Shown here: piece by piece, positions 11,410-48,516 of the stretch | Numbering within the stretch: the stretch's first letter is position 1 | Layout of the letters: each line of letters begins with the position of its first letter | Assembly (NCBI GenBank): GCA_964516055.1 | Contig: CAZEYK010000001.1 | Span: forward strand, 1 to 51,030 | Length of the DNA: 51,030 bases | Direction: 5' to 3' | Origin: an uncultured Gammaproteobacteria bacterium | Lineage (GTDB): Bacteria > Patescibacteriota > Patescibacteriia > Magasanikbacterales > UBA922 | Notes under the pieces: model-generated | The model's input: the letters and a program-made list of their open reading frames with translations, nothing else | What the model was told of the DNA's origin: nothing | The model's database searches: none | Made by a program: the position numbers and the translations under genes

Positions 11410-12422
11410 AGCAGGAGAACAAGAACATCATGAACAGAACCATGTCGTTCCTCGCTGCCACGCTCGTGGTGGTGGGGATGCTCCTGGGTTGGGGAAACCT
11501 GGCCCAGGCGCAGTCGGACGAAGTCCTCATCACCAAGGCCGAGCAGGCCATGGTAAAGAAGGACTACGTCCAAGCCATCGAGCTGTACACCCAGCTCTCC
11601 AACCGCAACAAGGACATGTCGGTGTACAAAGTCAACCTCGCGTTGGCCTACATGTCCATGAACGACGTCTGCTCGGGCCTCAAGTGGTTCGAGCAGGCGT
11701 CAAAAAACGAAGATCTGCCGCAAAGCGACGCGGCTGTCATCCAGACTGAATATCTGGAAGGATCATACGCCTGCCAAACCCTCACCGTGACCATCATCCC
11801 CCCTAAAAAGGGTGTGAAGCTCACGGTCGAAGGCAAGCTCGTCGCCACGACGGACAAAAACGGCAAAGCGACCATCGCCAAGCCGTTCACGTCCGTCGGT
11901 CAGATCACCCTTGTCGCCACCACCGACAACCGCACGGCGTCCACCACCGTGGACATCCCGTACGGTATCGGGGAAAAGTCCGTCACCATCACCCTGCCCA
12001 AGCCTACCAAAGGCAACGGCATCGTGTGGACCGACGACAAGAAGACTGATGAGGATGAGTTCGAAGTTGGCACCAAGCATCTCACCGTCATCGGCGTCGG
12101 GACCCTGTCCCTCGCGCTGGTGACAGGCGGCGTGTTCGCCAACATTTCGGCCGCGGGAAAATACGGAGAACTCGAGACCCTCGCGGGCAAACAAGCCCGT
12201 GGAGAGCTCAGGTCTCCCGCCGAAGCCGCGAAGCTTCAAGGGGAGCTCGACGACATGAACCAGTTGATGACAGCAATGTACATCAGCGGCGGCCTCCTGG
12301 CTGCCGCCGACGTCGCGCTGTTCTTCTACTGGGAAGCCGAGGAAACCAACAACAACACCCCCACCGTCACCATCACCCCCATGCGGGATGGTGGCACCGC
12401 GGTGTTCACCCTCCCCTTCTGA
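11406..12422 (+). CDS. Exported TPR-like / beta-sandwich (PEGA-like) protein with two C-terminal TM segments
   Basis: ATGA overlap with the kinase stop. Signal-like FLAATLVVVGMLLGWGNLAQA. TPR-like helix pair KAEQAMVKKDYVQAIELYTQL. Beta-rich segment TVTIIPPKKGVKLTVEGKLVATTDKNGKATI. TM segments LTVIGVGTLSLALVTGGVFANI and MYISGGLLAAADVALFFYW. Confidence 0.7.
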   Translation: MKQENKNIMNRTMSFLAATLVVVGMLLGWGNLAQAQSDEVLITKAEQAMVKKDYVQAIELYTQLSNRNKDMSVYKVNLALAYMSMNDVCSGLKWFEQASKNEDLPQSDAAVIQTEYLEGSYACQTLTVTIIPPKKGVKLTVEGKLVATTDKNGKATIAKPFTSVGQITLVATTDNRTASTTVDIPYGIGEKSVTITLPKPTKGNGIVWTDDKKTDEDEFEVGTKHLTVIGVGTLSLALVTGGVFANISAAGKYGELETLAGKQARGELRSPAEAAKLQGELDDMNQLMTAMYISGGLLAAADVALFFYWEAEETNNNTPTVTITPMRDGGTAVFTLPF

Positions 12423-12429
12423 AACAACA

Positions 12430-12448
12430 GGGGAGGCAACGCCTCCCC
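12430..12448 (+). other. GC-rich intercistronic hairpin
   Basis: GGGGAGGC (12430-12437), loop AAC, GCCTCCCC (12441-12448), with no following T-run. It lies between island genes 2 and 3. Confidence 0.45.
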
Positions 12449-12466
12449 CCAACAAGGAACACAATC

Positions 12467-14515
12467 ATGAAACAGTTCATCCATTTCCTGATGGGGATGG
12501 GGATGGCGATGCTATTCGTCGTCTCCGGCGGCTGTGAGAGCAGCCTCATCACCTGCGAAAAGAGCGCAGACTGCCCCGCGCACGCTTCGACGTGCTCCGA
12601 GGGCATCTGCATCACGCAGATCTCCATCGACAACGACACCGACGGCAACAACGACGGCAACAACGACAGCGATGTCGTCAACCCCGACGTCCCCGATACG
12701 GACAACGACACCTCCGACGCCGACGTCCCCCTGGACAACGGCTGCGGCGGTTCGGTGGAATTCCCAGAGGGTCAACGCCCAGGCGACCCCTGCGGCGAAA
12801 ACGACGAAGGGATGTGGGAGTGCGCCGGACAAAACGCCGTTCAGTGCAACGCCCCCAACCGCAACGCGTGTGGTGGCGAACAAGAGCTCAACGACGTACC
12901 CGGCACGATGTGCGGCGACGTGTGTCGCGATGGTTCACTCCGCTGCGACGAGGATGGTGAAAACCTCTTCTGCGCTGGCGAAAACGAGCCGTCAAATTGG
13001 TACCTCGACCTCGACGAAGACGAATACGGCGCGGGCGACCCCGCCGAGTTCTGTCCGAGTCAAGAAAGAGGTGCCTACACCGCCACTGTTGGCGGTGACT
13101 GCAACGACACGGACCCCGACGTCCACCCCGACGCCACCGAGATCTGCGACGGAATGGACAACAACTGCAACGGCGACTCTGACGAGCCGCTGAACGCCTG
13201 CGGGAGTTGTCAGGTCCTCCGCGGAGAGCCCGGCACCACTTGTGGTGAAGGACTCGATTGCGGATCAGGGACCTGGGAGTGCATGGGCGGCAACGTCCAG
13301 TGCACCCCCGGCGAGAACTCAGATCTCAACGCCTGCGGCGGATGCAGCACCCTCAGCCATGAGCCTGAAGAGGCTTGTGGTCAGTGCGGTGCCTACGCCT
13401 GCGACGGCGAAAACGCCACAATGTGCGTTGGCGCCGAGCCCAACAACGTTTGCGGCGGGTGCAACGCCCTGTCAAGCGACGTTGGCGCGCCCTGTGGCGC
13501 CTGCGGCGAGTATATCTGCAACGGTCGGGACGCTGTGCAATGCAGCGACCCCGGCCGCAATGCCTGTAATGGGTGTGGTGTTCTGGCTCATCAGCCCGCC
13601 ACGTCCTGTGACGAATGTGGGACCTACACCTGCAACGGCCCCAACACCGTCACCTGCAGCAACGACGTAGGCTTCAACGCCTGCGGCGTCTGCGACCGCA
13701 ACGGTGGTGTCTGCTGCGGCACAACCCTGTGCCCGCAGTCACCGCAAGGCTGGCCTGCGACCTGCAACGAAAAAGATCACTGCGAGTATGCTCCAGCCGA
13801 CGAGCTGGAGTTCTACAAAACGGTGATCTACGTTCCCCCCGGGAGCTTCCTCATGGGGGGACCCGAAGGAATTGAGAATGAAAAACCCGTACACGAGGTA
13901 ACATTCGTGCAAGGGTACTTCATTGCAAAGTTCGAGACCACCAGCGAGTGGTACGAACAATGCCCTCCATGCTTGGAGCAGCAGCGATCAATTGCCAACG
14001 GCAACGTTGGCAACTGGGGGCTCAACACCTCCAGCAACGGTCGCTCGCTCCACCCCGTCAACGGCGTCAACAAAAATGACGCCACCACCTTCTGTCTCTG
14101 GGCAGAAGGTCGACTCCCCACAGAAGCCGAATGGGAATTCGCCGCCACAGGAGAAAATCACAGGATCTACCCCTGGGGGGATGTTAATGGAACCTGCAAC
14201 CAGGCAATACTAACAATCTGTGGTTCCTTGGGGACCACAGAAGTGGGAACAGCAGCTGGGGGCGTCACCCCCAAAGGATGTCTCGACATGATCGGCAACG
14301 TAGCCGAACATGTAAGCGACGCCTACCACCCAACATATGAGGGTGCCCCAAATGACGGCACATCATGGGATGAGGGTGGAGAACCTGGAACCATAGTCAT
14401 CCGCGGCGGGGGGTATCACCAGGATACCCCCCGCATATCACACAGAGTAAGCTCGTTTAGTGACGAGCGAAACGCAATGACAGGATTCAGGTGTGTCTTC
14501 TTTGGCCTCCCCTAG
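12467..14515 (+). CDS. Lipoprotein with Asp/Asn-rich linker, ~6-7 Cys-rich repeats, a MopE-like metal-binding motif and a C-terminal FGE-sulfatase (SUMF1/PvdO/GldK-type) domain
   Basis: Lipobox-like MLFVVSGGC. Repeats of the form NACGGCxxLxxxPGxxCGxCGxYxCxGxxxVxC. MopE-like motif DCNDTDPDVHPDATEICDGMDNNCNGDSDE. C-terminal domain: YVPPGSFLMGG..EKPVHEVTF..LPTEAEWEFAA..IRGGGY..GFRCV (about 13820-14506). Confidence 0.85.
   Translation: MKQFIHFLMGMGMAMLFVVSGGCESSLITCEKSADCPAHASTCSEGICITQISIDNDTDGNNDGNNDSDVVNPDVPDTDNDTSDADVPLDNGCGGSVEFPEGQRPGDPCGENDEGMWECAGQNAVQCNAPNRNACGGEQELNDVPGTMCGDVCRDGSLRCDEDGENLFCAGENEPSNWYLDLDEDEYGAGDPAEFCPSQERGAYTATVGGDCNDTDPDVHPDATEICDGMDNNCNGDSDEPLNACGSCQVLRGEPGTTCGEGLDCGSGTWECMGGNVQCTPGENSDLNACGGCSTLSHEPEEACGQCGAYACDGENATMCVGAEPNNVCGGCNALSSDVGAPCGACGEYICNGRDAVQCSDPGRNACNGCGVLAHQPATSCDECGTYTCNGPNTVTCSNDVGFNACGVCDRNGGVCCGTTLCPQSPQGWPATCNEKDHCEYAPADELEFYKTVIYVPPGSFLMGGPEGIENEKPVHEVTFVQGYFIAKFETTSEWYEQCPPCLEQQRSIANGNVGNWGLNTSSNGRSLHPVNGVNKNDATTFCLWAEGRLPTEAEWEFAATGENHRIYPWGDVNGTCNQAILTICGSLGTTEVGTAAGGVTPKGCLDMIGNVAEHVSDAYHPTYEGAPNDGTSWDEGGEPGTIVIRGGGYHQDTPRISHRVSSFSDERNAMTGFRCVFFGLP
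12734..13726 (+). repeat. Coding tandem array of ~38-40-aa cysteine-rich repeats (Myxococcus-type disulfide repeat-like)
   Basis: Seven units, the last partial, each begin with N[AGV]C: NGCGGSVEF.., NACGGEQEL.., NACGSCQVL.., NACGGCSTL.., NVCGGCNAL.., NACNGCGVL.., NACGVCDRN... Confidence 0.75.
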
Positions 14516-15355: not shown

Positions 15356-17323
15356 CTATATATGCAAACCACACTCATTATTACCCGTATCATGAAATCG
15401 TCCCTTTCTTTCTTCGTTAGCAACATCACTTTTTTTTGTACAAGGTTCACAACCTAAAGAAGTATATCCTTCATTATATAATGGATGATATGATAACTTA
15501 TACGTTCGTAAATATTCCCATACATCATCTTTTGTCCAAAATGCAATTGGATTATACTTTACAATATTTTCTGATTTTTCAATAATAGGAGTATATTGTC
15601 GTTGAACACTTTCATCACGACGTAATCCGGTAATCCATGCATCATACTTATCTAAAATGGGAACAATGGCAGGTTTTTTCATGGCACAACACATATACTG
15701 TCCTTCATGAATAAACGAATTTGCAAACGTACTTTTTATTTCAGAAATATCATCTTCAGTAGGACGAACCCACAAAAGATTCATATGAATTTCTTGCTCT
15801 AATTCTTTTGCAAAACGAAGTGTCTCTGGAAATTCATATCCAGTATCAATACTAACAAACAAAGCATCAGACTTAATTTGCATAACTAAATCAGCAATAA
15901 CTCGAGAATCCTTACCAAATGAACAAGCAACAAACAAATTTGGATGAACCAAAAATGCATGTTCAATAATTATTTTTGAAAGTTCTACCTTTTCTTCAAG
16001 AGTTATGTTTTTTTTAGGAACATCCAATAAAAGAGGTTCTTCTTGAATGTCAGGCAACATTTTTTTCTCTGATGGAGTAATAACCCCAGCAGCAACAGTA
16101 TCTCCTGTAACTTCATCAATTAATATAAAACTTCCCAATTTTTTATTCTTCTTGTATGAATCAAAAACAAATGGTTCATGAGTAGTAAAACGCACCTTAC
16201 CTATCTGATTAAGTTCCACTTGAGAGGCTTCTTGATATTCCCCATTCAAAACATCAATAACAGAAAAAACAGTATTAATAAAACAAAAAGTCTCCTTTGT
16301 CGTTTGTTTGATAATATATCTATTTTTCTTTACCGCAGGTTGTTTATTAAACCAAAACACCACAGCATCAATATTGTTAGAAACAATAGGTTCATTACCA
16401 ACACGCACCACAATATCCCCTCGACTGACATCAATTTGGTCAACAAAACTCATAACAGCAGCCTGTCCATTAAACGCATAACTCACATCTTCTTCTGCTA
16501 CAGAAATATGTTCAATAAAAGATTCAACACCTGATGGTAAAACTTTTATATTATCTCCAACAAGAAATACTCCTCCAGCGACAGTCCCTGCATACCCTCG
16601 AAAATCTTGATCAGGACGAACAACATATTGCACAGGAAAACGAGCATCCACCATATTACGGGAAGAGATAACAGGAACATCATGAATATATTCAAGTACT
16701 GTCTGACCAAAATACCATAACAAATTATTGCCACGAGTAGCAACCATATCACCTTTTAAAGCAGAAACCGGAATAAACTGAATATTTTTTATACCAATAT
16801 TTCTCGTAAACAATTGAACATCATCCCTTATGTTTTCAAAAACACCTTGATCATATGACACCATATCCATTTTATTCACAACAACTGCGACATGGGGAAT
16901 ATTCAATAAAGAAAGGACAAAAAAATGACGTCTTGTTTGCACAGTCATTCCTTTTCTTGCGTCAATCACAATCAATGCAACTTGAGAATGAGAAGCACCT
17001 GTAACCATATTTCTTGTATATTCTTCATGACCAGGAACATCGGCAATAATAAACGTTCTTTGATTAGAAGAAAAATATCTATATGCTACATCAATAGTAA
17101 TTTTTTGTTCTCGCTCAGCTTCAAGACCATCTGTAAAAAGTGAATAATCAAGTTCATCCTCAATGTGTTCAGTATTTTCAACAGCTTGTATTTGATCTTC
17201 ATACACATTACCCGTATCATAAAGAAGCCTTCCTATTAAAGTTGATTTTCCATCATCTACACTTCCAGCAATAACAAGAGTAAGTAATTCCATGTTTCGA
17301 TTGTATTTACGTTTATTCTCCAT
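15356..17323 (-). CDS. cysN: Fusion: sulfate adenylyltransferase subunit 1 (CysN GTPase) + Fe-S type APS/PAPS reductase (CysH family)
   Basis: CysN part (aa 1-417): GSVDDGKSTLIGRLL, DVPGHEEY, NKMD. CysH part (aa ~441-655, nt 16003-15359): PP-loop-like ACSFGKDS, the Cys pair QYMCCAMKKP, GCEPCT, and the C-terminal ECGLH motif. Confidence 0.85.
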   Translation of the reverse strand: MENKRKYNRNMELLTLVIAGSVDDGKSTLIGRLLYDTGNVYEDQIQAVENTEHIEDELDYSLFTDGLEAEREQKITIDVAYRYFSSNQRTFIIADVPGHEEYTRNMVTGASHSQVALIVIDARKGMTVQTRRHFFVLSLLNIPHVAVVVNKMDMVSYDQGVFENIRDDVQLFTRNIGIKNIQFIPVSALKGDMVATRGNNLLWYFGQTVLEYIHDVPVISSRNMVDARFPVQYVVRPDQDFRGYAGTVAGGVFLVGDNIKVLPSGVESFIEHISVAEEDVSYAFNGQAAVMSFVDQIDVSRGDIVVRVGNEPIVSNNIDAVVFWFNKQPAVKKNRYIIKQTTKETFCFINTVFSVIDVLNGEYQEASQVELNQIGKVRFTTHEPFVFDSYKKNKKLGSFILIDEVTGDTVAAGVITPSEKKMLPDIQEEPLLLDVPKKNITLEEKVELSKIIIEHAFLVHPNLFVACSFGKDSRVIADLVMQIKSDALFVSIDTGYEFPETLRFAKELEQEIHMNLLWVRPTEDDISEIKSTFANSFIHEGQYMCCAMKKPAIVPILDKYDAWITGLRRDESVQRQYTPIIEKSENIVKYNPIAFWTKDDVWEYLRTYKLSYHPLYNEGYTSLGCEPCTKKSDVANEERKGRFHDTGNNECGLHI

Positions 17324-17326
17324 ACA

Positions 17327-18235
17327 CTAAAAATAGCCTTGTTTTTTTTTATGTTCCATTGAAGTGTCAGATGTTTTATCAATTGCCCTATTACTTCTTT
17401 CGGACTGTTTTGCTTCCAAAACTTCACAAAGGATTTCCTCAACTGTTTTTGCACATGACAATACGGCACCAGTAGAAGGTGAACACCCTAAAGTTCGATA
17501 ACGAGCTTCTGCTTCTATAACTTCTTCCCCTTCTCGAGCAATCACATAATTGTCCAACGCATAAAAACTATTATTGCGCTTCACCAATTTTCTTTTCTCG
17601 GCAAAATAGAGTGAGACAACTTCAATCTTTTCTTGAAGAATATACGCCCAGATATCGGCTTCAGTCCAATTAGACAATGGAAAAACGCGCATACTCTGTC
17701 CATTCTGTAATTGAGTATTGTATAAATTCCATAACTCAGGTCTTTGTAATTTTGGATTCCAACCACTGTGTTCATTACGAACAGAAAAAATACGTTCTTT
17801 TGCACGAGATTTTTCTTCTTCACGTCTAGCGCCACCAATTGCGGCATCAAAACGATACCTTTCAAGAGCGTCAAGTAAAGGCTTCGTTTTTTTATGATAA
17901 ATATAATTATCAGTATGTGCATCATTCGGACCAAAAGACAAAGCCTCCAAAGAATCATTTTTTTCAACAATCAGTTGCACACCAATTTTATCTATATAAT
18001 AATCACGAAATTCAATCATCTCTCTAAATTTAAACCCTGTGTCAACGTGCAAAAGAGGAAAAGGAATCTTTCCTGGGAAAAAAGCCTTTTGTGCTAAACG
18101 TAACAAAACTGAAGAATCCTTACCAATAGAATAAAGAAGGACAGGACGACGAAATGTCGCAGCGACCTCACGAAAAATATAAATACTTTCTGCTTCAAGC
18201 TGCTTAAGCGATGATAATTGATATTTTTCCCCCAT
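17327..18235 (-). CDS. cysD: Sulfate adenylyltransferase subunit 2
   Basis: LKQLEAESIYIFREVAA..PVLLYSIGKDSSVLLRLA PP-loop. Length is 302 aa. It ends 3 nt before the cysN fusion start. Confidence 0.85.
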   Translation of the reverse strand: MGEKYQLSSLKQLEAESIYIFREVAATFRRPVLLYSIGKDSSVLLRLAQKAFFPGKIPFPLLHVDTGFKFREMIEFRDYYIDKIGVQLIVEKNDSLEALSFGPNDAHTDNYIYHKKTKPLLDALERYRFDAAIGGARREEEKSRAKERIFSVRNEHSGWNPKLQRPELWNLYNTQLQNGQSMRVFPLSNWTEADIWAYILQEKIEVVSLYFAEKRKLVKRNNSFYALDNYVIAREGEEVIEAEARYRTLGCSPSTGAVLSCAKTVEEILCEVLEAKQSERSNRAIDKTSDTSMEHKKKQGYF

Positions 18236-39403: not shown

Positions 39404-40135
39404 TTATGTTAAAAGTTTTTTCATTTTTATAGTGGCAACATCCCAATCATCTGGAGTATCAATATCAAAAGCATATTTTTCATCCATCAAATATCCCTTC
39501 GTTAAATCACCCCATAACGAAGGATCCTCTGTATAAAAATTGGCAACACGAAATGCATAAATAGCCGAATTAATATAATAAGTAGGTGATATATTTTGAT
39601 TTCGATGAATAAAATTTTTTACCTTTGTTCCATCAATAGAAGCAACTAAATCATCTTCCGTAAAAACAAGTGATTTATATGGACTAAAATGAGCAGGGAT
39701 TTTCGATATACCCACAATTGAATCAATATGATTTCCATATTCCTTAATTAATTGAACAACATCTATAACATGCGATGCTTGTCTTCCTGGAGCAGTTGGT
39801 TCAAACAAAACTACCCAATCAGCATTATATTGTTTATTATCACGCATCCACTCAACAGCATGTTTCACAACTTCAAATGATCCAGCAGTATCGGTAGCCA
39901 ACTCAGCGGGTCTCATAAATGGCACATCAATACAATATTCCTTTCCCACAGCAGCAATATCATCGTCATCTGTACTCAAAATAAAGTGATCAAAACAATT
40001 TGCATTTTTACCAACCTCAATACTCCACGCTAACAATGGTTTCCCATGAAATGGTTTAATATTCTTTCCTGGCAATCTTTTTGAATCACCACGCGCAGTA
40101 ATTATTCCTAAAATATTAGGATTTAATTTTTTCAT
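39404..40135 (-). CDS. neuA: CMP-nonulosonic acid synthetase, copy 2
   Basis: ILGIITARGDSKRLPGKNIKPFHGKPLLAWSI. Close paralog of 14638-15348. Confidence 0.8.
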   Translation of the reverse strand: MKKLNPNILGIITARGDSKRLPGKNIKPFHGKPLLAWSIEVGKNANCFDHFILSTDDDDIAAVGKEYCIDVPFMRPAELATDTAGSFEVVKHAVEWMRDNKQYNADWVVLFEPTAPGRQASHVIDVVQLIKEYGNHIDSIVGISKIPAHFSPYKSLVFTEDDLVASIDGTKVKNFIHRNQNISPTYYINSAIYAFRVANFYTEDPSLWGDLTKGYLMDEKYAFDIDTPDDWDVATIKMKKLLT

Positions 40136-41522
40136 ACGTTGTACTAATTACATCAAATAATCTTTCTCCTGCTTTTCCATCAAGTTTATAACAAAACCTT
40201 TCAATTAACTCACGTCGCTCCTTACCAAATTTATCTCCATTTTCAAGAATATCATTAATGCTATTCTTCAATTCATCAGCAGAATATGCTAAATAAGTAG
40301 ATTTAAAACTCAAAATCTCCTTATAATAATCACATACATACCATCTTCTAACACTTTTATATATTGGCAAATCATTTTCCTGTCCATCAAACATAATCAA
40401 TACAACAGGCTTTCCTATAGCCGCCCCATCCAAAGTAAGTGTAGAACACGTATTAATAATAACATCACTATGATACATGCAATTAAAAAAATGTTTCATT
40501 TGATCATAAGAATAATCCCAAGAATCCCTAAATTTCTTCGAAGGATTATTATGAGAATCAACAACAACATCATTTCTATTCAATACAGAAGAAAACTTTT
40601 CATAATCATTCTTATGACAAAAATGTGGTCTAATCAACAGTTGGCTTTCTTCAATAAGAAATCCATTTTTAATAAAATCTACAATAATTTCAGTAATATT
40701 CGAATCTGTTGGGATAACCTTTCCTTCTGATCCAAAAAATATAATACGCTTTTCAGGATCTAACCCCATGTTTTTACAAAAATCTTCTCGTGAAACAATA
40801 TAAGAATCATCACTATAATAATCAAACTGCGGTACACCAATAGTATTAATATTCTTTTCTTTATACCCTTGCAAATGTATCATCTGATGCTTCATAAAAG
40901 GACTCCATACGACAAGGGTATCAACTTGAATAGGAAACAATGCCTTAGACGGATTATCCCAAGTCTTTGGCATTCCAATAGTTTTGATACCACTTAACTT
41001 AGCTGCCTTAATAAAGGCAGCATCTTCAGACTCCATAATACTAGTAGAAAAAACCAAATCTAGTTTATATTCTTCAAAATATTTTCTATATTTGCTAACA
41101 ACTTCCTTATCAATAAGAAGACCATTAATATATATCAAAAAAGATTTATAAAATGACAACTTAGACAAAGGCAAAAAAACTATTGCTAACAAAATATATT
41201 TAATATTATGAAAAAAATTTAAAAACCAATTACGTTTGCTAACATCAACATAATCATAAAGTGCAAGACGTTTCGTGTTCAAATTAAAAACAGAAAATTT
41301 ATTTATCTTCAACACCACACTCTGTAAATAACCATACTTTTCAGGATAAAGTGGTAAAAATTTAACATTATCACCACCAAACTCAGAAATAAACCTTTCA
41401 TCCTTATATGCTGGTGTAAATATAACAATTTGTTCAGCACTTTTCTTAAGTTTCTCAAAAAAAACATTTTGCAAAATATTTCTTGCGGTACCTCCGCGTG
41501 ATATGGTAATGGCTATCTTCAT
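40116..41522 (-). CDS. Uncharacterised GT-B-like protein, paralog A
   Basis: Shares its motifs with 35438-36817 (see that entry). Overlaps the neuA-like start by 20 nt. Confidence 0.5.
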   Translation of the reverse strand: MKIAITISRGGTARNILQNVFFEKLKKSAEQIVIFTPAYKDERFISEFGGDNVKFLPLYPEKYGYLQSVVLKINKFSVFNLNTKRLALYDYVDVSKRNWFLNFFHNIKYILLAIVFLPLSKLSFYKSFLIYINGLLIDKEVVSKYRKYFEEYKLDLVFSTSIMESEDAAFIKAAKLSGIKTIGMPKTWDNPSKALFPIQVDTLVVWSPFMKHQMIHLQGYKEKNINTIGVPQFDYYSDDSYIVSREDFCKNMGLDPEKRIIFFGSEGKVIPTDSNITEIIVDFIKNGFLIEESQLLIRPHFCHKNDYEKFSSVLNRNDVVVDSHNNPSKKFRDSWDYSYDQMKHFFNCMYHSDVIINTCSTLTLDGAAIGKPVVLIMFDGQENDLPIYKSVRRWYVCDYYKEILSFKSTYLAYSADELKNSINDILENGDKFGKERRELIERFCYKLDGKAGERLFDVISTTYEKIKS

Positions 41523-41722: not shown

Positions 41723-42463
41723 TTAATAATATAATGAAAAATCATTTTTCATAACCTCTCGTGCATGTATCAAATCTTCTTGAGTATCTATTTCAAGCCA
41801 TTCATACCCACTAATATCACCAATATAAAAGCCCACATGATCTGTATCCACGATCTTCTGCATAACATGTTCACTTACCGCTTGTTCAAAATCTTTTGCA
41901 ATTACGTCCTTAATAGTTTGCTTATATAATGGAAGATACTGTTCAGGACAATAGGTAATACCCACATACCCTAAACTATAATCTTGCAATGTTTTTGATA
42001 CGAATTTCAATTTATCACCTGAATCAGATGTTTTAACCTTCATATCATCATCAGTTAATTTTCTATCATTATCAGTGAATATTAAAAATTTATTTCCCAA
42101 TTGCTTCGCCATTTTATCTGCGATTTCCTTTCGAAAAATATGATCAGCATGATACACTACACATGAAGTATCAACCAAATCTAGACCACACTGCAAACTA
42201 AAAATATTACCCAAACGAAATTTTTTATTTTCTACAACTTCAACATTAGCATCAATATCTTTTACAACAGAGCGGAGTTTATCAATTTGAAAACCACCTA
42301 CAATAATGATTCTATCAGCACCAAGCGAATGTAAAAAACGAATACCATATTCTATAAGAGGTTTTCCTTCAATTTCAACCAAAGGTTTTGGTGTATCGAT
42401 AGTAATATCTTTTAATCTAGTACCCAAACCTGCGGCCATTACTACTGCTGTCAAATTATTCAT
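41723..42463 (-). CDS. Sugar-phosphate or alcohol-phosphate nucleotidyltransferase (LicC/IPCT-like)
   Basis: AVVMAAGLGTRLKDITIDTPKPLVEIEGKPLIEYGIRFL and C-terminal WLEIDTQEDL. ATGA overlap with the upstream 929-aa gene. Confidence 0.75.
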   Translation of the reverse strand: MNNLTAVVMAAGLGTRLKDITIDTPKPLVEIEGKPLIEYGIRFLHSLGADRIIIVGGFQIDKLRSVVKDIDANVEVVENKKFRLGNIFSLQCGLDLVDTSCVVYHADHIFRKEIADKMAKQLGNKFLIFTDNDRKLTDDDMKVKTSDSGDKLKFVSKTLQDYSLGYVGITYCPEQYLPLYKQTIKDVIAKDFEQAVSEHVMQKIVDTDHVGFYIGDISGYEWLEIDTQEDLIHAREVMKNDFSLYY

Positions 42464-45249
42464 AATTCTTTTAAAAAATCAGTGAATAACATTTTATTAG
42501 CAACAACGTACTTATATGATTCAAAAAACTGAACACCGTATTTAACGGCTAATTCACCATCAAACCATCTCATCGGCCAAACAAATGCTTCCCGAAGTAA
42601 CCGAAAACGTAATGCATCGAAAAAATATTTTTTTTCACTATCAGTAAATGAACGAATTGATTGGTAACCTTTCAAAAAAGAAGTAATTAAATTAACTTGA
42701 GGAATTCCATTATTAAAAGCCATCCAGATAAGCGGAGTCATAACATCAAATAACAAAATTCCCCGATAACAATTATTAAAATCAATAAAATGCAATTGTC
42801 CATCAGAATCTACAATAATATTTTCAGGTTTAACATCTTGATGAGTAGTTCCTATAGGTAATTCCACATCAAAATTCATCTGAGAAATTTCATTTCGTAT
42901 ATAAGAAACAAACTCATTAACATTTGGAAAATTCCTATTCATAACACTACCAGCATATTCGTCAACAAAAGACACAATATCATTATATTCCCACGTTTGT
43001 TTAGGTACCGATTGTTTCAGATCTTGCAAAATCACATGCATACGCCCCAATAATACTCCAACATCATGCAATTGTTCCTCTGTGGCAGAAGATAATATTT
43101 CACCAGGAATATATGTAAACAACGCATATTGTTTATTATTCATCGAAGTACCATATGTTTGTGCATTCAATAGTGGATGGATATAAGGACAAGGAAATTG
43201 TTGTAAAGCTAATGCAGTAAGAATAGAAAGTTCATAGGCAACTTGTTCCTGACTATCAAAATTATATTGCTTAAACAAATACAATCCCTCTGTAGAGTTC
43301 ACTAAATAATTAGTATTAACAACACCCATAGTTATTTCATCTACTTTTGTAGGATGAATACCATACTCAGATTGAACAATATGCGAAATATCCAAGGTAG
43401 CATAACTACGTCGAATAGCTTCTTCTAAATGGATATCATTACAAGTAACAAAATAATAATTATCGTTATGCCAAATAGATCCAATACGATCAACAAGTAC
43501 AAATCTCGCTTGATTTCCATGATACTTTTTACTAAATTTCATCGAATCCAAAATGGCTTGAAAATCTATATCATCTGGAATAGTATGAGGTAAATTATAC
43601 TTTTGTAACATAGCAATTTGTTTTTCTACAGTGTCATCATCACATATGCCCAACACTCGTGAAAGTTCAGCAGAAACACGCATTCCAATAGCAACAGACT
43701 CCCCATGTAATAGTCTATACCCAGATAAATGTTCTACCGCATGCCCAACTTCATGACCATACTGATTAACAAGCGCAATTTTTTCTTCATCATAATCTTG
43801 AGAAATAGAATCAACCTTTAATGTAGATGCTCTACGAACAACTTCTTCAAGAAAATCTAAATTTTTAATTTCCCCATTATATTCATCAAAAAATGTATAA
43901 AAATCAACATCCTGAGCAAAAGCTTGTTTAAGACATTCAGCAAGACCATCATAAACATATTTATCTTCAAGAGTCATTAAAGTAGCAGGATCAACGATTA
44001 CCTTTAATGGACTATAATAACTCCCAAGCATATTTTTTCCCAAAGTACCATTCACTCCCTGCTTTAACGCAATAGCAGCGTCACTTTGAGACAAAACAGT
44101 AGTAGGAAAACTAACAAATCCAATACCTCTATAAATTGTTGATGCAAGAAAACCGGCCAAATCTTTTACGACTCCCCCACCGACAGACATAATAATAGAT
44201 TTTTTATCAATTCCCTGAGAAATCATATAATCAGCAAGTCTAATATATTCAGAAATACTTTTTGTATTTTCACCTGGATCAACCAATATTTTTTCTATAC
44301 GATAGCCTAGACCTTTAAATTGCTTATAAATATTCTCCCCATAAAATTTATCAATATTTCTATCAACGACAATATAATGGGGAGAATAAAATGATTCATG
44401 AGGAATAATTTCATATTGATCAATATGATCAAGTATTCCTCTTTCTATAACAACATCAAAACGAAGCTTTTTATCATAATCATACACCGTTGACGGAATT
44501 AACGCTGTATAACTTGGGGTAGGATGATCTTCAGAAACACCAACATTTCTACAAAGAAAAGATTCTGCACGAATCAAATCAACCGGTAAATTGATGTCAA
44601 ACCATCTATGTTTAAATTCTGCAGAAAAAATATCATTTGCATTTCCATACTTTGCAAGCACATCACTACAAGTACGTGTGGTGTCATCAACAAAACCCAT
44701 TAAATCAAAATATCCGTTCAAACTTAAACGATATAATCCAGCTTCATACAATGGCAAACCTGTTGAACCGGTATCTTCATAAATAAGTTTTCCATCAACA
44801 AGATGAACATGAACAGTCGCCCCAGAGTCAACACCATACATAGCTCGAGCACCCACCAAAACTTCAACATCACCTTCAAAAGTAAAAGCAGACAGTGGGC
44901 TTTCCTGAAAAACAAGATCACACATACTCACAAAAAAATCATTAGCGATGAATCCACTATCGATAAGTGTTGAAATAGACTTCATTGCTGAAATCATATT
45001 AGCATCATGATCAATTTCAATGTAAGTAATATTCTTTTTTTCAAATAATTCTTTTTTTATCAACGAATCATATTTTCTAATAACAATAACAATATTTTCT
45101 ACTCCCATTTCTTCATAACGCTTTACACTACGCATGATCAATGTTTCTCCTCCAACCTTAACTAACGGTTTAGGTGTTTCAAAAATATCTAACCTTCTGC
45201 CAAGACCACCTGCCAAAATTACTCCTATATTAATATTTTTTGATGACAT
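42460..45249 (-). CDS. Tri-domain fusion: nucleotidyltransferase + 3-dehydroquinate-synthase-like sugar-phosphate cyclase + APH/choline-kinase-like kinase
   Basis: aa 1-235 (45249-44545): GVILAGGLGRRL..TPKPLVKVGGETLI. aa ~245-612 (44517-43414): SVGGGVVKDLAGFLAS..FPTTVLSQSDAAIALKQGVN..GKNMLGSYYSP..GLAECLK..YGHEVGHAVEH..LLHGESVAIGM. aa ~620-929 (43392-42463): THQDVKPENIIVDSDGQLHFIDFNN. Confidence 0.8.
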   Translation of the reverse strand: MSSKNINIGVILAGGLGRRLDIFETPKPLVKVGGETLIMRSVKRYEEMGVENIVIVIRKYDSLIKKELFEKKNITYIEIDHDANMISAMKSISTLIDSGFIANDFFVSMCDLVFQESPLSAFTFEGDVEVLVGARAMYGVDSGATVHVHLVDGKLIYEDTGSTGLPLYEAGLYRLSLNGYFDLMGFVDDTTRTCSDVLAKYGNANDIFSAEFKHRWFDINLPVDLIRAESFLCRNVGVSEDHPTPSYTALIPSTVYDYDKKLRFDVVIERGILDHIDQYEIIPHESFYSPHYIVVDRNIDKFYGENIYKQFKGLGYRIEKILVDPGENTKSISEYIRLADYMISQGIDKKSIIMSVGGGVVKDLAGFLASTIYRGIGFVSFPTTVLSQSDAAIALKQGVNGTLGKNMLGSYYSPLKVIVDPATLMTLEDKYVYDGLAECLKQAFAQDVDFYTFFDEYNGEIKNLDFLEEVVRRASTLKVDSISQDYDEEKIALVNQYGHEVGHAVEHLSGYRLLHGESVAIGMRVSAELSRVLGICDDDTVEKQIAMLQKYNLPHTIPDDIDFQAILDSMKFSKKYHGNQARFVLVDRIGSIWHNDNYYFVTCNDIHLEEAIRRSYATLDISHIVQSEYGIHPTKVDEITMGVVNTNYLVNSTEGLYLFKQYNFDSQEQVAYELSILTALALQQFPCPYIHPLLNAQTYGTSMNNKQYALFTYIPGEILSSATEEQLHDVGVLLGRMHVILQDLKQSVPKQTWEYNDIVSFVDEYAGSVMNRNFPNVNEFVSYIRNEISQMNFDVELPIGTTHQDVKPENIIVDSDGQLHFIDFNNCYRGILLFDVMTPLIWMAFNNGIPQVNLITSFLKGYQSIRSFTDSEKKYFFDALRFRLLREAFVWPMRWFDGELAVKYGVQFFESYKYVVANKMLFTDFLKEL

Positions 45250-45258
45250 AATAGAGTA

Positions 45259-46278
45259 TTAATACGTTACAATACATTTAAGAGTCTTCCTTTCCCTAGT
45301 TGCAACAAAAGCATCACTTATATTGTTAAGATGATAAATATATTCCTTAGAAATATAATATTCATGATTAAGCATACCTGCATGCCATTGTTCAATAACA
45401 ACATCATGCGCACTAGCTTCATCGTACAACTCCCCATTAAAAAATTGTATATCTCCTTGAGCTTTTATCACAGGTATACGATATTCATGATAAGCATTTA
45501 GCCCATATAAACCAATTTTCCCTTTATCACCTAAAAATGGGATAACTGCATCCAAATTTAAACAATCTCCTATAGTGTCAATAATTAAATCAAATTGAGT
45601 ATTATTATCATACAATGTACCAGCTACATTTTCATTAGTATACGGAATATATAAATTAGCACCTGCAGATAAAAATAATTTTTCACGCAAAGAACTACCA
45701 ATAACCGTAATCCTAAATGACTTATTCCGAGTATGCTCCAAAAAAGCCATAGCATTAGCTCCACTCCCAATGATACAGACTGATTGCCCCGAAGAAACAT
45801 CCATTCTGGTTAAAAAAGAAAGAGTTTCTCGCCAAGTAATAATCATCGTAGATGCAACAGGATCAACCCATTCAGGTAAAACCCTATGTACCCTATAACA
45901 ATCCCATTGAGATTGAGGGAGTGCATCATCTCGCATAGCTTGCCAGTCAGTAGCAACAGAATATTCAGCAAATGCTCCATACGCAATAGAATATGGACTA
46001 TCAGAAGGAAAAACATTGAACACACGAGTCACAACATCTCCCAGATTAATATGTCTTACTTTTTTCCCAATACCAATAACTTTTCCAATTCCTTCATGAC
46101 CAAGCACCGTTGGATAAAAAATTTTTTTATAATGTAAACCATCAATAATATGAGTATCCGTACCACTACAAATTCCTGTCGCAATAGTTTTACATAAAAC
46201 ATCATAATCACCAACAATAGGTTCCGGTAAATCACGGACCTCAAGGTTGCCAGGAGTAACTACAACAGCAGCTTTCAT
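45259..46278 (-). CDS. Zn-dependent medium-chain alcohol/polyol dehydrogenase
   Basis: GICSGTDTHI (Cys ligand), VLGHEGIGKV, and NAD motif VCIIGSGANAMAF. The four-Cys structural-zinc loop appears to be absent. Confidence 0.75.
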   Translation of the reverse strand: MKAAVVVTPGNLEVRDLPEPIVGDYDVLCKTIATGICSGTDTHIIDGLHYKKIFYPTVLGHEGIGKVIGIGKKVRHINLGDVVTRVFNVFPSDSPYSIAYGAFAEYSVATDWQAMRDDALPQSQWDCYRVHRVLPEWVDPVASTMIITWRETLSFLTRMDVSSGQSVCIIGSGANAMAFLEHTRNKSFRITVIGSSLREKLFLSAGANLYIPYTNENVAGTLYDNNTQFDLIIDTIGDCLNLDAVIPFLGDKGKIGLYGLNAYHEYRIPVIKAQGDIQFFNGELYDEASAHDVVIEQWHAGMLNHEYYISKEYIYHLNNISDAFVATRERKTLKCIVTY

Positions 46279-46284
46279 AATTCA

Positions 46285-47055
46285 TTACTTATTATACAAT
46301 TTTTGAGAATAAATAAGATAAAAATGTTTCAAAAATAAAGACACGTAAAAAAACATATATCCTATCGCAAAAAACATCACTCCATAGTCAACAATATGAA
46401 ACAATGAGCACACAAACAATACAAAAAAAACACCAGTTGAACTCAAAAAATTCTTATTCACTCGTGCCATAATGACATATATCGTACTTGCAAAACTTCG
46501 CGATACAATTACAGGGATACTCTCACCAAAAACAGCATCGTTCTTCTTTTGTTCAATAAGTTGTTGAAGCTGCAAAATCCGAGCATCAAGTAATCGATAC
46601 TCAAGTTTAGTAATACTTGCGATAGCCCCACATAAAAGAAATATTACCCCATATCCTTGGACATATAAAGCCACCCCCAAAATGAACGGAGCAAACCCAT
46701 ATTGAACATCATGACTAACAGGTTCCGTATATACACCACCAAGTAAACTCTTTTGTTCACGAAATCGTGCAACTTCTCCATCACACCCATCAAACACAAT
46801 AGATAAAAAGATAATCAAAGAACCAAGGATATTCATGAAAGTAGTATCAAAAAAGAACATACCTATCCCAATAAAAAAGGTAACAACGCTTAATATAGTG
46901 ATATTATTAGGAGTAATAGCTGTTTTCAAAAATATTTTCGTACAATAAATAGAAAAAATTCGAGAAAACAATCCCACCCAACTTTCACGTTTTGGATCGG
47001 GTGCTGTTTTTTGACAAATTGCACGAAGCTCTTTTATAGAATAATTTTTTTTCAT
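46285..47055 (-). CDS. CDP-alcohol phosphatidyltransferase-family membrane protein
   Basis: Polytopic membrane protein. Signature FDGCDGEVARFREQKSLLGG..., with the distal acidic positions of the motif imperfect. ATG 47055 is preferred over the track's TTG at 47103. Confidence 0.7.
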   Translation of the reverse strand: MKKNYSIKELRAICQKTAPDPKRESWVGLFSRIFSIYCTKIFLKTAITPNNITILSVVTFFIGIGMFFFDTTFMNILGSLIIFLSIVFDGCDGEVARFREQKSLLGGVYTEPVSHDVQYGFAPFILGVALYVQGYGVIFLLCGAIASITKLEYRLLDARILQLQQLIEQKKNDAVFGESIPVIVSRSFASTIYVIMARVNKNFLSSTGVFFVLFVCSLFHIVDYGVMFFAIGYMFFYVSLFLKHFYLIYSQKLYNK

Positions 47056-47126
47056 AATGTTATGGAAACACACGCAGAAAATTTTCTTAATGATAAATAA
47101 CAAAAAGTTAATATCCCCTATAAAAA

Positions 47127-48260
47127 CTATGAACGAATAAATGACAAAATACGTGATGCCCTACTATCCCAAGAAAATGAACATCCCTTTTCATACGCTG
47201 CTAAAGAGATAGTCTTTCCTAAAAAATTATCAGTAAGCAATGTTGTCACTTTCTTAGCCAAATCTACCGAATCATCAGGAGAACAAAGAAGTGCATTCTT
47301 CTCATCAACCAGATATGCCGAAAAACTCTCAATATCACTCGCAACAATTGGTACACCAGACACCATATACTCAAATAATTTAATAGGTGTGGTATAAGAG
47401 GCAGAACGTTCTTCTTTTGCCGTATTTGGAAGTACCAACACATCAGCAGATTTAATAAATCTAATAATATCATGGTGCTTCACAAACGGGTGAACATATA
47501 CATTATTAATACCTTTTTCTTCTATATACTTTTCAACAAGTTCACGATCCTGAGGAATTCCACCAATCAAACAAACATTTGCATCGATGAATGCAGCAGC
47601 ATCAATCAAAGTGTAAATTCCCTTCCATTTATAAAAATGTCCAACATACAAAACGACAGGACGCTTTTCAGAAAAAGAAAATGCTGATTGCCATACACGC
47701 ACATCTCGAGACACTCCCTCAAATTCTTTTACATCTACCCCATTGGGGGCTACTAATATAGCATCTAACGGCACATCATGCTGCTTATACAAAGACAACA
47801 AATTTTCTGCAACAACCACTTTTTTTGTAATGTTGCGCACAAACAAGAAATATAATGAGCGAAACCGTTTCTTTGGTTCATGATCTTCAAACACCACCAT
47901 TTTTCCAAATATACTCAACAAAAAGCATACTGTCAGCTCGCGCGAATAAATCACATCATATTTACCAAACAATCCATAAAAAAATGCAAAAATGGTAAAA
48001 CTTACTCGTTGCAAGAAAAAATACATCTTATGAAATGGTGTTTCCAAAAAAGAAAAAACGTTAGGGACAAACGTCATCGGAATATTATCTTCTACATGAT
48101 AAAATGAACGATAACCATCCGTAATATGATTCCGTCGTCGAGGCAACAAAAGCCGAACATTTTCCCCCGCACGGATAAAAGCTTCAATCGTTTTCACAAT
48201 CTGAAGCCCATGAGCTTTTTCAGTAGGAATGCGTGAATTAGCAATATATAAAATATTCAT
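47127..48260 (-). CDS. GT4-family (GT-B) glycosyltransferase
   Basis: MNILYIANSRIPTEKAHG and the E-x7-E region EERSASYTTPIKLFEYMVSGVPIVASD. Confidence 0.8.
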   Translation of the reverse strand: MNILYIANSRIPTEKAHGLQIVKTIEAFIRAGENVRLLLPRRRNHITDGYRSFYHVEDNIPMTFVPNVFSFLETPFHKMYFFLQRVSFTIFAFFYGLFGKYDVIYSRELTVCFLLSIFGKMVVFEDHEPKKRFRSLYFLFVRNITKKVVVAENLLSLYKQHDVPLDAILVAPNGVDVKEFEGVSRDVRVWQSAFSFSEKRPVVLYVGHFYKWKGIYTLIDAAAFIDANVCLIGGIPQDRELVEKYIEEKGINNVYVHPFVKHHDIIRFIKSADVLVLPNTAKEERSASYTTPIKLFEYMVSGVPIVASDIESFSAYLVDEKNALLCSPDDSVDLAKKVTTLLTDNFLGKTISLAAYEKGCSFSWDSRASRILSFIRS

Positions 48261-48261
48261 A

Positions 48262-48516
48262 CTAATCAGGCCACTTGTTTATAACACCGGTAACCTTTTC
48301 CTTTGCCTGTAAATAAACATCTACTGATTTCTCTTCAAGCTCGGGAGAAATTAATCGCAAAATTTCTTTCCCCAAAATACGATATTGCCCACCTACTTTA
48401 TTGGCACGCAAAATCCCCTTCTTGAGCAGACGTTTGATGGTACTTTCACTAACCTTAAGGAGTATTTGTGCTTCACTCGTTGTATATACAGCATGCTGTT
48501 TAATTTCTTGTTCCAT
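48262..48516 (-). CDS. Excisionase-family (MerR-like HTH_17) DNA-binding protein
   Basis: 84 aa. Sequence YTTSEAQILLKVSESTIKRLLKKGILRANKVGGQYRILGKEIL. It ends 1 nt before the GT4 start. Confidence 0.75.
   Translation of the reverse strand: MEQEIKQHAVYTTSEAQILLKVSESTIKRLLKKGILRANKVGGQYRILGKEILRLISPELEEKSVDVYLQAKEKVTGVINKWPD

Follow-up and report, generated by a model that had tools for sequence, protein, structure and literature searches.

What can an ultrasmall groundwater member of the candidate phyla radiation (CPR, or Patescibacteria) be making with a DHQS-like sugar-phosphate cyclase that is fused to both a nucleotidyltransferase and a kinase, and encoded next to a dehydrogenase, another nucleotidyltransferase and a membrane CDP-alcohol phosphotransferase? 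The question is raised by a block of minus-strand genes at positions 41723-47103 of a 51,030-nucleotide stretch of contig CAZEYK010000001.1 (assembly GCA_964516055.1, Magasanikbacterales), the whole of which is referred to here as the window. A reading of the DNA letters alone (the original prediction) had proposed a single pathway, in which a cyclitol is made, phosphorylated, activated with a nucleotide and passed on by CDP-alcohol-type transfer. With moderate confidence, we interpret the block as a conserved operon devoted to a cyclitol head group, consisting of a core and a CPR-specific tail. Judged from its enzymes' sequences, the core likely yields a nucleotide-activated cyclitol of the deoxy-inositol type. 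The pathway is real and conserved, and apparently undescribed. As biosynthesis in CPR bacteria is minimal, a multi-enzyme pathway conserved over several of their lineages probably serves the envelope or attachment to a host.

The predicted open reading frames lie exactly where they had been placed, all on the minus strand, and Pfam confirms the full set of predicted domains, distributed over four genes. The uppermost gene (46285-47055) encodes an atypical class I CDP-alcohol phosphotransferase of six helices (CDP-OH protein). Its ATG at 47055, preferred by gene callers and by the family alignment, gives 256 aa and not the 272 aa obtained when the frame is extended to a TTG at 47103. It is followed by a Zn-dependent medium-chain dehydrogenase/reductase of 339 aa (45259-46278; Pfam ADH_N, 8.5e-12) and by a 929-aa fusion protein (42460-45249). 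The fusion is made up of a nucleotidyltransferase domain, NT1 (residues 1-250, 44500-45249; Pfam NTP_transf_3, 3e-12), a DOIS-like sugar-phosphate cyclase domain (residues 255-600, 43450-44487; Pfam DHQ_synthase and DHQS_C) and an APH-type small-molecule kinase domain (residues 627-929, 42463-43371; Pfam APH, 4e-21, 76 bits). The last gene (41723-42463) encodes NT2, a stand-alone LicC/IPCT-like nucleotidyltransferase of 246 aa (Pfam NTP_transf_3, 5.6e-15). NT2 overlaps the stop of the fusion gene by 4 nt and the remaining intergenic gaps are 6 and 9 nt, a spacing that fits coupled translation and agrees with the contiguous, coupled block that had been described.

The strongest argument for a sequence of cyclisation, ketoreduction, phosphorylation and nucleotidyl transfer is the replacement of two of these steps by unrelated enzyme families in other genomes. 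A scan of one genome per species gave 146 related stretches, from Saccharibacteria, Magasanik-, Falkow-, Taylor- and Parcubacteria, many Myxococcota and a few other metagenome-assembled genomes (MAGs). The homologues are usually nucleotidyltransferase-cyclase (NT::cyclase) fusions of ~620 aa. The survey of co-occurrence that the original prediction had called for was made on 57 non-redundant loci with enough flanking sequence, with Myxococcota loci covered by Pfam scans of two and tblastn over the remainder. A reductase lies beside the NT-fused cyclase in 53 of the 57 loci, and is either a zinc-dependent alcohol dehydrogenase (Zn-ADH) or a short-chain dehydrogenase/reductase (SDR), never both. 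A kinase is present in 54, and is either APH-type or PfkB-type, again never both. NT1 and the cyclase form one protein in 52 of the 57 loci, and in 50 of the 54 that hold a kinase.

Two arrangements emerge from these loci. The CPR-type module consists of the CDP-OH protein, reductase, NT::cyclase, APH kinase and NT2, often with HTH_17, GT4, TagF-like and ABC-exporter genes close by. The same gene set is found again in 17 diverged loci, and the arrangement is far beyond chance. The PfkB-type loci, largely of Myxococcota by record title, carry a compact NT::cyclase, SDR and PfkB unit (37/37). NT2 is present in all 17 APH-type loci and in none of the 37 PfkB-type loci, and the CDP-OH gene in 16/17 and 0/37, respectively; NT2 and the CDP-OH transferase therefore co-vary and are confined to APH-type loci. 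The APH kinase is a separate gene in other loci. Further fusions join NT1, cyclase and SDR (L093, 887 aa), APH kinase and CDP-OH transferase (L070 10001-11700, 558 aa, in Magasanikbacteria genome UBA10197), and NT2 and a methyltransferase (L006). Together with the synteny among CPR loci and the exchange of reductases and kinases, these Rosetta-stone fusions bear out the proposed logic of one pathway. As to the replacement enzymes, the Myxococcota PfkB gave a weak, unspecific match to archaeal myo-inositol kinase (3w4s/4xf6, E 0.002), and the closest matches of the SDR are polyketide ketoreductases, which is not diagnostic.

The cyclase domain matches Pfam DHQ_synthase and DHQS_C at fusion residues 321-575 (4e-33 and 3e-29; 114 and 102 bits). 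A reference set of DHQS, aminoDHQS, EVS, EEVS, DDGS, EboD-like proteins and six DOIS was taken from the eLife 2015 source data, with BtrC and AnDHQS verified as identical to PDB 2d2x and 1dqs. These sequences were aligned with 75 homologues of the window cyclase, and the active-site fingerprint was rebuilt in AnDHQS numbering. The window cyclase reads R130 D146 K152 Q153 N162 E194 K197 K250 E260 A264 Q268 Y269 H271 H275 H287 K356. Its metal ligands (E194, H271 and H287) are kept in 75/75 members, as are the phosphate and NAD-cycle residues (R130, D146, K152, N162, K197, H275 and K356), except in two fragments without the K356 region. The T153 of DHQS is Gln in the window cyclase and in essentially all family members, as it is in DOIS. 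At 264, the Arg of DHQS is replaced by Ala, Ser or Gly, or by Glu in 5/75 members, and is retained in none of the 75; DOIS likewise lacks Arg264. Y269 is common to the family and DOIS, and the combination of Q153, Y269 and no Arg264 is seen in all six reference DOIS. Position 268 is Gln in 71/75 members and Leu in 4/75, compared with Asn in DHQS and Glu (Glu243) in 6/6 DOIS. In a neighbour-joining (NJ) tree, the family members form a single clade in 100/100 replicates. This clade is not nested within DOIS, but appears as its sister group in 67/100. On these sequence comparisons, the cyclase is assigned to a DOIS-like clade of its own, nearest to DOIS, and hexose-6-phosphate is the best guess for its substrate.

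The dehydrogenase matches Pfam ADH_N (45.7 bits) and, weakly, ADH_zinc_N (18.5 bits), and has PDB matches at ~1e-8 to Zn-ADH, threonine dehydrogenase and sorbitol dehydrogenase. By reading of the sequence, the protein has C37, H61, E62, E105 and the Rossmann motif GSGANA, and lacks the cysteine-rich loop that would bind a structural zinc. We propose that it is a ketoreductase acting on the inosose. In the kinase domain, Pfam APH spans fusion residues 638-843, and the HxDxxxxN (HQDVKPEN) and DFN (IDFNN) motifs are legible in the translation. Among NCBIfam models, type II homoserine kinase comes closest (100 bits; cut-off 271), and no equivalog cut-off is reached. NT1 matches Pfam NTP_transf_3 at fusion residues 9-115 and IPCT in the PDB (2xme, 6e-7). 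For the two nucleotidyltransferases, Pfam also reports NTP_transferase alongside NTP_transf_3. The catalytic motifs GxGxRL and KPL, and residues D111 and D218, are invariant or near-invariant across 40 family members, with A13, G15, K27, D111 and D218 as the invariant residues. NT2 is matched best in NCBIfam by IPCT/DIPPS (81.5 bits, over its full length) and in the PDB by LicC (1jyk, 6.7e-15) and IPCT (2xme, 3e-10).

The CDP-OH protein matches Pfam CDP-OH_P_transf with 28.5 bits (cut-off 22). Its best NCBIfam matches are archaetidylinositol-phosphate (AIP) synthase, IPCT/DIPPS and PIP synthase, and its best PDB match by sequence is AF2299 (1.1e-10). The scores against the IPCT/DIPPS model NF041135 (cut-off 580 bits) are 31.6 bits for the CDP-OH protein and that given above for NT2. 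An AlphaFold (AF2) model is a six-helix bundle (pLDDT 90.5, pTM 0.87), for which Foldseek ranks AF2299 (E 2e-5, TM 0.60), RsPIPS 5d91 and IPCT-DIPPS 4mnd, each with probability 1.00. CDP-alcohol phosphotransferases with six transmembrane helices take soluble acceptors, while lipid-acceptor members have three or four extra helices (PMC4634129). The predicted six-helix fold would therefore argue that the acceptor is soluble and that the group is not passed directly to a lipid (diacylglycerol, for example), and favours a DIPPS-, AF2299- or PIPS-like reaction on a cyclitol or cyclitol-phosphate. This runs counter to the lipid acceptor implied by the original prediction. The protein does not fall in a housekeeping phospholipid synthase family, which would have spoken against that prediction, but belongs to a small, discrete and locus-bound subfamily (88 clusters, with scores falling sharply beyond the group) that is characterised by the motif DxxDGxxAR...G...EPxSHD and by invariant K150 and R154. 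By analogy, NT2 and the CDP-OH transferase resemble IPCT/DIPPS divided over two proteins. The most divergent members of the subfamily (~34% identity) lie at L092 7001-9568, in a glycan cluster with two TagF-like genes, beside a GFO_IDH_MocA oxidoreductase (inositol-dehydrogenase family) and an SDR. No cyclase accompanies them, and the subfamily is thus not absolutely tied to the cyclase.

From this comparative genomics, the following core steps are proposed. The DOIS-like cyclase would turn hexose-6-phosphate, most likely glucose-6-phosphate, into a deoxy-inosose with loss of the phosphate. The ring ketone would then be reduced by the Zn-ADH here, and by the SDR elsewhere, to a deoxy-inositol (a quercitol-type cyclitol), which would be re-phosphorylated by the fused APH domain here and the PfkB kinase elsewhere. 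From the cyclitol phosphate, NT1 would make an NDP-cyclitol, probably CDP-cyclitol. In the more speculative CPR-specific tail, NT2 and the six-helix CDP-OH transferase would act as a split pair and link a CDP-activated alcohol, through a phosphodiester, to a cyclitol or cyclitol phosphate as the soluble acceptor. All of the closest relatives of the CDP-OH protein act on inositol phosphate or on soluble CDP-alcohols. Support also comes from inositol-monophosphatase (IMPase)-family genes in or beside the module in L093, L014 and L013, and from the surface-glycan genes around the block (NeuABC, TagF-like, ABC exporter and Capsule_synth). The phospho-cyclitol may be destined for an envelope glycan, a teichoic-acid-like polymer or a lipid anchor, a structure for which the GT4, TagF-like and ABC-exporter genes nearby would be responsible. 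A bolder version, which we put forward tentatively and regard as somewhat doubtful, is that the cyclase (with Gln268 in a 'QYGH' motif, and NT-fused) is an eighth DHQS-like type that founds a primary-metabolic CDP-deoxyinositol pathway, with CPR bacteria, which make few lipids or cofactors themselves, using the AF2299-like phosphotransferase to install phospho-deoxyinositol as head group or linker on an envelope glycolipid or teichoic-acid-like polymer, and Myxococcota making another product from the activated cyclitol.

Several points weigh against this proposal. The sister grouping with DOIS has only 67% NJ bootstrap, the closest solved structures by overall sequence score are true DHQS proteins, and the DOIS-specific Glu243 is Gln here, so that substrate or mechanism may differ from those of DOIS. 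Three APH-type loci have no detectable reductase nearby, and 34 of the 37 PfkB-type (Myxococcota) loci have neither a linked transferase nor a CDP-OH gene beside the operon. The second nucleotidyltransferase is also unexplained: CPR loci carry two, and the role of one of them is not accounted for. In the CDP-OH protein, D1, D2, G1, A, R and G2 of the class I signature D1xxD2G1xxAR...G2xxxD3xxxD4 are present, but D3 is an invariant Glu111, and the D4 position is an invariant His115 that is followed by an invariant Asp116. The chemistry may thus be non-canonical, and the motif bears on the mechanism of CDP-alcohol phosphotransferases in general. Finally, we infer the substrate, the stereochemistry of the product and the nucleotide (CTP), as well as the transferase reaction and the final destination in a glycan, polymer or lipid.

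Two other readings concern the cyclase. It is barely credible that the domain is an ordinary 3-dehydroquinate synthase (AroB) that has been fused by happenstance to unrelated domains. TIGR01357 aroB is its best NCBIfam model, the PDB matches are led by DHQS (up to 5e-48, compared with 9e-35 for DOIS, 4e-30 for EEVS and 1e-25 for DDGS), and homologues are annotated as 3-dehydroquinate synthase in the source databases. However, its 284.3 bits do not reach the curated cut-off (305), none of the 75 members has N268 or the ligand of the DAHP carboxylate, R264, and the family stands apart from DHQS in 100/100 replicates of the tree. Shikimate kinase, EPSP synthase, dehydroquinase and shikimate dehydrogenase were sought with the AROM protein and two shikimate-kinase domains as queries, and none was found in 93 loci or in the window. 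The regular linkage of the cyclase to a nucleotidyltransferase, reductase and kinase is also at odds with chance fusion. The original prediction, against which grouping with true AroB or a shikimate context would have counted, is upheld in this respect by the phylogeny and fingerprint comparison that it had called for. Its placement of the cyclase near sedoheptulose-7-phosphate (S7P) cyclases does not hold. In such a reading, which is quite improbable, the product would be a C7 carbasugar-like (valiolone-type) cyclitol, whose phosphorylation and activation would follow the pattern of the validamycin and acarbose pathways. The combination of cyclase, kinase, nucleotidyltransferase and Zn-ADH recalls C7N-aminocyclitol pathways, and the 'DAA' that begins the cyclase motif resembles the DAG of EEVS and the DAS of DDGS. 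The motif as a whole, SQSDAAIALKQGVN, had been read as DAGxxIK-like, but is closer to DSVLSLKQAVN of DOIS than to EEVS or DDGS. Moreover, EEVS and DDGS are the most distant clade in the tree (97/100 replicates; 21-26% identity to the family). They have Met at position 250, Asp or Ala at 268 and Pro or Met at 275, with a D281-type residue typical of EEVS and an A268-type one of DDGS, where the window family has K250, Q268 and H275. EVS, with V153, R264, N268 and R356, retains two of the residues that the window cyclase (Q153, A264, Q268 and K356) has lost, and EboD-type DEIS, with N153, H250, S264 and D268 (Q153, K250, A264 and Q268 in the window), forms a separate branch. A model based on pneumococcal CDP-2-glycerol (Gtp1-3), with the DHQS-like domain as a polyol dehydrogenase, was rejected, as the phosphate and metal residues of the cyclase are all kept and there is a separate reductase in 53/57 loci.

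The remaining readings concern the fate of the cyclitol phosphate. In a lipid route like that of PIP synthase, which we regard as unlikely, the cyclase, reductase and kinase would do no more than provide a cyclitol phosphate. The CDP-OH enzyme would join it to CDP-diacylglycerol, in the manner of bacterial PIP synthases and inositol-1-phosphate, and a phosphatase would then release a phosphatidyl-deoxyinositol lipid or glycolipid anchor, with the nucleotidyltransferases serving other steps. The NCBIfam, PDB and Foldseek relatives nearest to the CDP-OH protein include AIP and PIP synthases. The protein has six helices, and its invariant K150 and R154 fall where PIPS binds the acceptor phosphate (a region assigned by eye). 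IMPase-family genes are found in some modules, as noted above, and a GT4 glycosyltransferase is encoded next door, as PimA is for phosphatidylinositol. In Bradymonadales-type Myxococcota (L079 4326-9561, L031, L046 and L049), genes for MIPS (myo-inositol-1-phosphate synthase), an MMPL transporter and a CDP-alcohol phosphatidyltransferase of more canonical type are found in divergent orientation beside the NT::cyclase/SDR/PfkB operon, as a hint that the cyclitol pathway and the synthesis of inositol lipids may be connected. However, this route leaves NT1, cyclase-fused in almost every genome, without a role, and AF2299 and DIPPS, which match the CDP-OH protein best, are not lipid-processing enzymes (PMC4634129). 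These same matches, with the top NCBIfam match of NT2 to IPCT/DIPPS and the IMPase genes, could be read in favour of a soluble phosphodiester like di-myo-inositol phosphate. Here, NT2 and the CDP-OH protein would act as IPCT and DIPPS and an IMPase-type phosphatase would complete a di-cyclitol phosphate or glycero-phospho-cyclitol osmolyte. The isolate names of several carrier MAGs suggest saline or spring habitats, on the names alone. Such a solute is nevertheless improbable: in CPR bacteria the module lies within surface-glycan clusters that also hold GT4, TagF-like and ABC-exporter genes, groundwater CPR bacteria have no obvious need for it, and a CDP-OH gene is missing beside most PfkB-type operons, as noted above.

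The favoured reading, an operon for a cyclitol head group, is built of steps that each have a known analogue (DOIS, IPCT/DIPPS, LicA/LicC and NDP-valienol formation). The window cyclase shares with DOIS the DHQS fold, all 12 shared catalytic residues, and near-identical motifs (DAAIxxKQGVN in the window family and DSVLSLKQAVN in DOIS; EGLVLQYGH and EGLVLEYGH, respectively), in addition to the Q153 and Y269 pattern. It differs in having Gln in place of the catalytic Glu243 of every DOIS, in its identity of 24-29%, in its fusion to a nucleotidyltransferase and in the absence of a DOI aminotransferase or other aminoglycoside genes. While DOIS belongs to antibiotic clusters of actinomycetes and Bacillus, the window family is found in envelope-glycan or stand-alone operons of CPR bacteria and Myxococcota. 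The tail resembles IPCT/DIPPS, and AF2299 of Archaeoglobus fulgidus, in pairing a LicC/IPCT-like cytidylyltransferase with a six-helix CDP-alcohol phosphotransferase, for which these are the best sequence and structure matches, and presumably in activating a cyclitol phosphate as a CDP-alcohol. However, the window proteins come from separate genes and are not fused, and they are far from the NCBIfam equivalog cut-offs. The LicA/LicC (or fused LicCA) phosphocholine system also combines an APH/choline-kinase-fold kinase, a LicC-like cytidylyltransferase and a phosphotransferase, and LicC is the best solved relative of NT2. In the window, by contrast, the alcohol would be made de novo by the cyclase, the kinase is nearest to type II homoserine kinase and not choline kinase, and the transferase is of the CDP-OH family and not LicD.

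In the activation of C7-cyclitols for validamycin and acarbose, EEVS is followed by a cyclitol kinase, a nucleotidyltransferase that forms NDP-valienol, and cyclitol dehydrogenases of the Zn-ADH type. The general order of the chemistry is the same, from cyclase through redox tailoring, kinase and nucleotidyltransferase to an NDP-cyclitol. The two differ in the clade of the cyclase, in the kinase family (APH or PfkB here) and in the use of a phosphotransferase here and a pseudoglycosyltransferase there; they differ also in setting, a secondary-metabolite cluster as opposed to primary envelope biosynthesis for the window block. DEIS, another DHQS-like cyclase that does not belong to an antibiotic pathway, was recognised recently and yields a C6 deoxy-inosose (PMC12904256). 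No eboA-F genes are found near the window block, and the fingerprints differ as described above.

Literature searches returned no description of such a CDP-cyclitol pathway, of a DOIS-like enzyme in CPR bacteria or Myxococcota, or of quercitol activation, in keeping with the remark in the original prediction that no such pathway was known. A cyclitol biosynthesis review of February 2026 lists DHQS, DOIS, EEVS, EVS, DDGS and, as the latest addition, DEIS, without mention of the window family. The DHQS-like cyclase types number seven when aminoDHQS is counted. If the proposal is right, the cyclase would be a new member of the small set of characterised DHQS-like cyclases and would place DOIS-type chemistry in primary or envelope metabolism. 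On the bolder version, no earlier role of this chemistry beyond antibiotic biosynthesis would be on record, and its product would represent a new class of substituent on bacterial surfaces. The hypothesis is directly testable, as records titled as cultured strains carry the core operon (Lujinxingia vulgaris TMQ2, Myxococcota) or the cyclase alone (Trinickia symbiotica JPY-345). In the latter (L086 4974-17665), the stand-alone cyclase is of the QYGH type, has 402 aa and lacks a nucleotidyltransferase domain. It is surrounded by ~5 GT4 glycosyltransferases, an SDR, a UDP-GlcNAc 2-epimerase and a polysaccharide deacetylase, with no kinase seen nearby.

Upstream of the CDP-OH gene, the window carries genes for a GT4-family glycosyltransferase of 377 aa (47127-48260, minus strand; Pfam Glycos_transf_1, 4.5e-26) and an HTH_17 DNA-binding protein of 84 aa (48262-48516, minus strand; Pfam HTH_17), the latter ending 1 nt before the GT4 start. 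Since both are as tightly spaced as the block and are conserved beside the module in other CPR loci, the operon probably starts further upstream than the CDP-OH gene. HTH_17 is probably its first gene, associated with the module but outside the core. The best promoter-like site of the region is at 48553-48525; the scan for promoters and terminators gave no more sites than in shuffled sequence. HTH_17 homologues adjoin the module in L006, L007, L018, L019 and L021 with 71-76% identity, where the neighbouring enzymes are only 33-55% identical, an unusually strong conservation for a small DNA-binding protein. The GT4 glycosyltransferase is module-associated, adjoining the module in 9/17 CPR-type loci. 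Its NCBIfam matches are generic only (MshA 48.7 bits) and do not identify it as an MshA- or PimA-type inositol glycosyltransferase. On the other side, 200 nt downstream of the block, lies a gene for a TagF-like (Glyphos_transf) phosphotransferase of 468 aa (40116-41522, minus strand; Pfam 1.7e-11), which falls in the NCBIfam BFO_1060 family with 56.7 bits. Homologues lie within 9 kb of the module (<=9 kb) in 12/17 CPR-type loci, and the protein is a candidate consumer of a CDP-activated polyol, outside the core.

Other loci carry additional modifying enzymes. In a Parcubacteria locus (L093 7852-14640), the gene for the NT::cyclase::SDR fusion precedes those for an APH kinase, an IMPase-family protein, NT2 and a B12-binding radical SAM enzyme. 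The presence of this radical SAM enzyme suggests that a nucleotide-linked intermediate is C-methylated. S-adenosylmethionine (SAM)-dependent methyltransferases are found at NT2 as three genes in tandem (L005 11540-14413), as a fusion (L006 10788-12113) and as an adjacent gene (L019).

The window as a whole has a GC content of 30-35% and nearly all of its genes are on the minus strand. Their functions are mostly related to surface glycan, and include NeuA/B/C, two TagF-like proteins, an ABC exporter, Capsule_synth and several methyltransferases and glycosyltransferases. On the plus strand (9727-14515), ~5 kb form an island of 57-61% GC that encodes a Ser/Thr protein kinase, a TPR-like protein and a protein with a MopE motif and an FGE-sulfatase domain. 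Assemblies from four samples share the CTP_transf_3 gene that lies downstream of it, and two of these also share its upstream flank of UDP-glucose dehydrogenase genes. The island is therefore not a one-off chimera, and has the look of DNA acquired recently from a donor of high GC content. Finally, at 15356-18235, a GTP_EFTU and PAPS_reduct fusion (CysN/CysD-like) and a second PAPS_reduct protein are encoded beside a second NeuB and a CTP_transf_3 gene, suggesting sulfate activation for a sulfated surface glycan.

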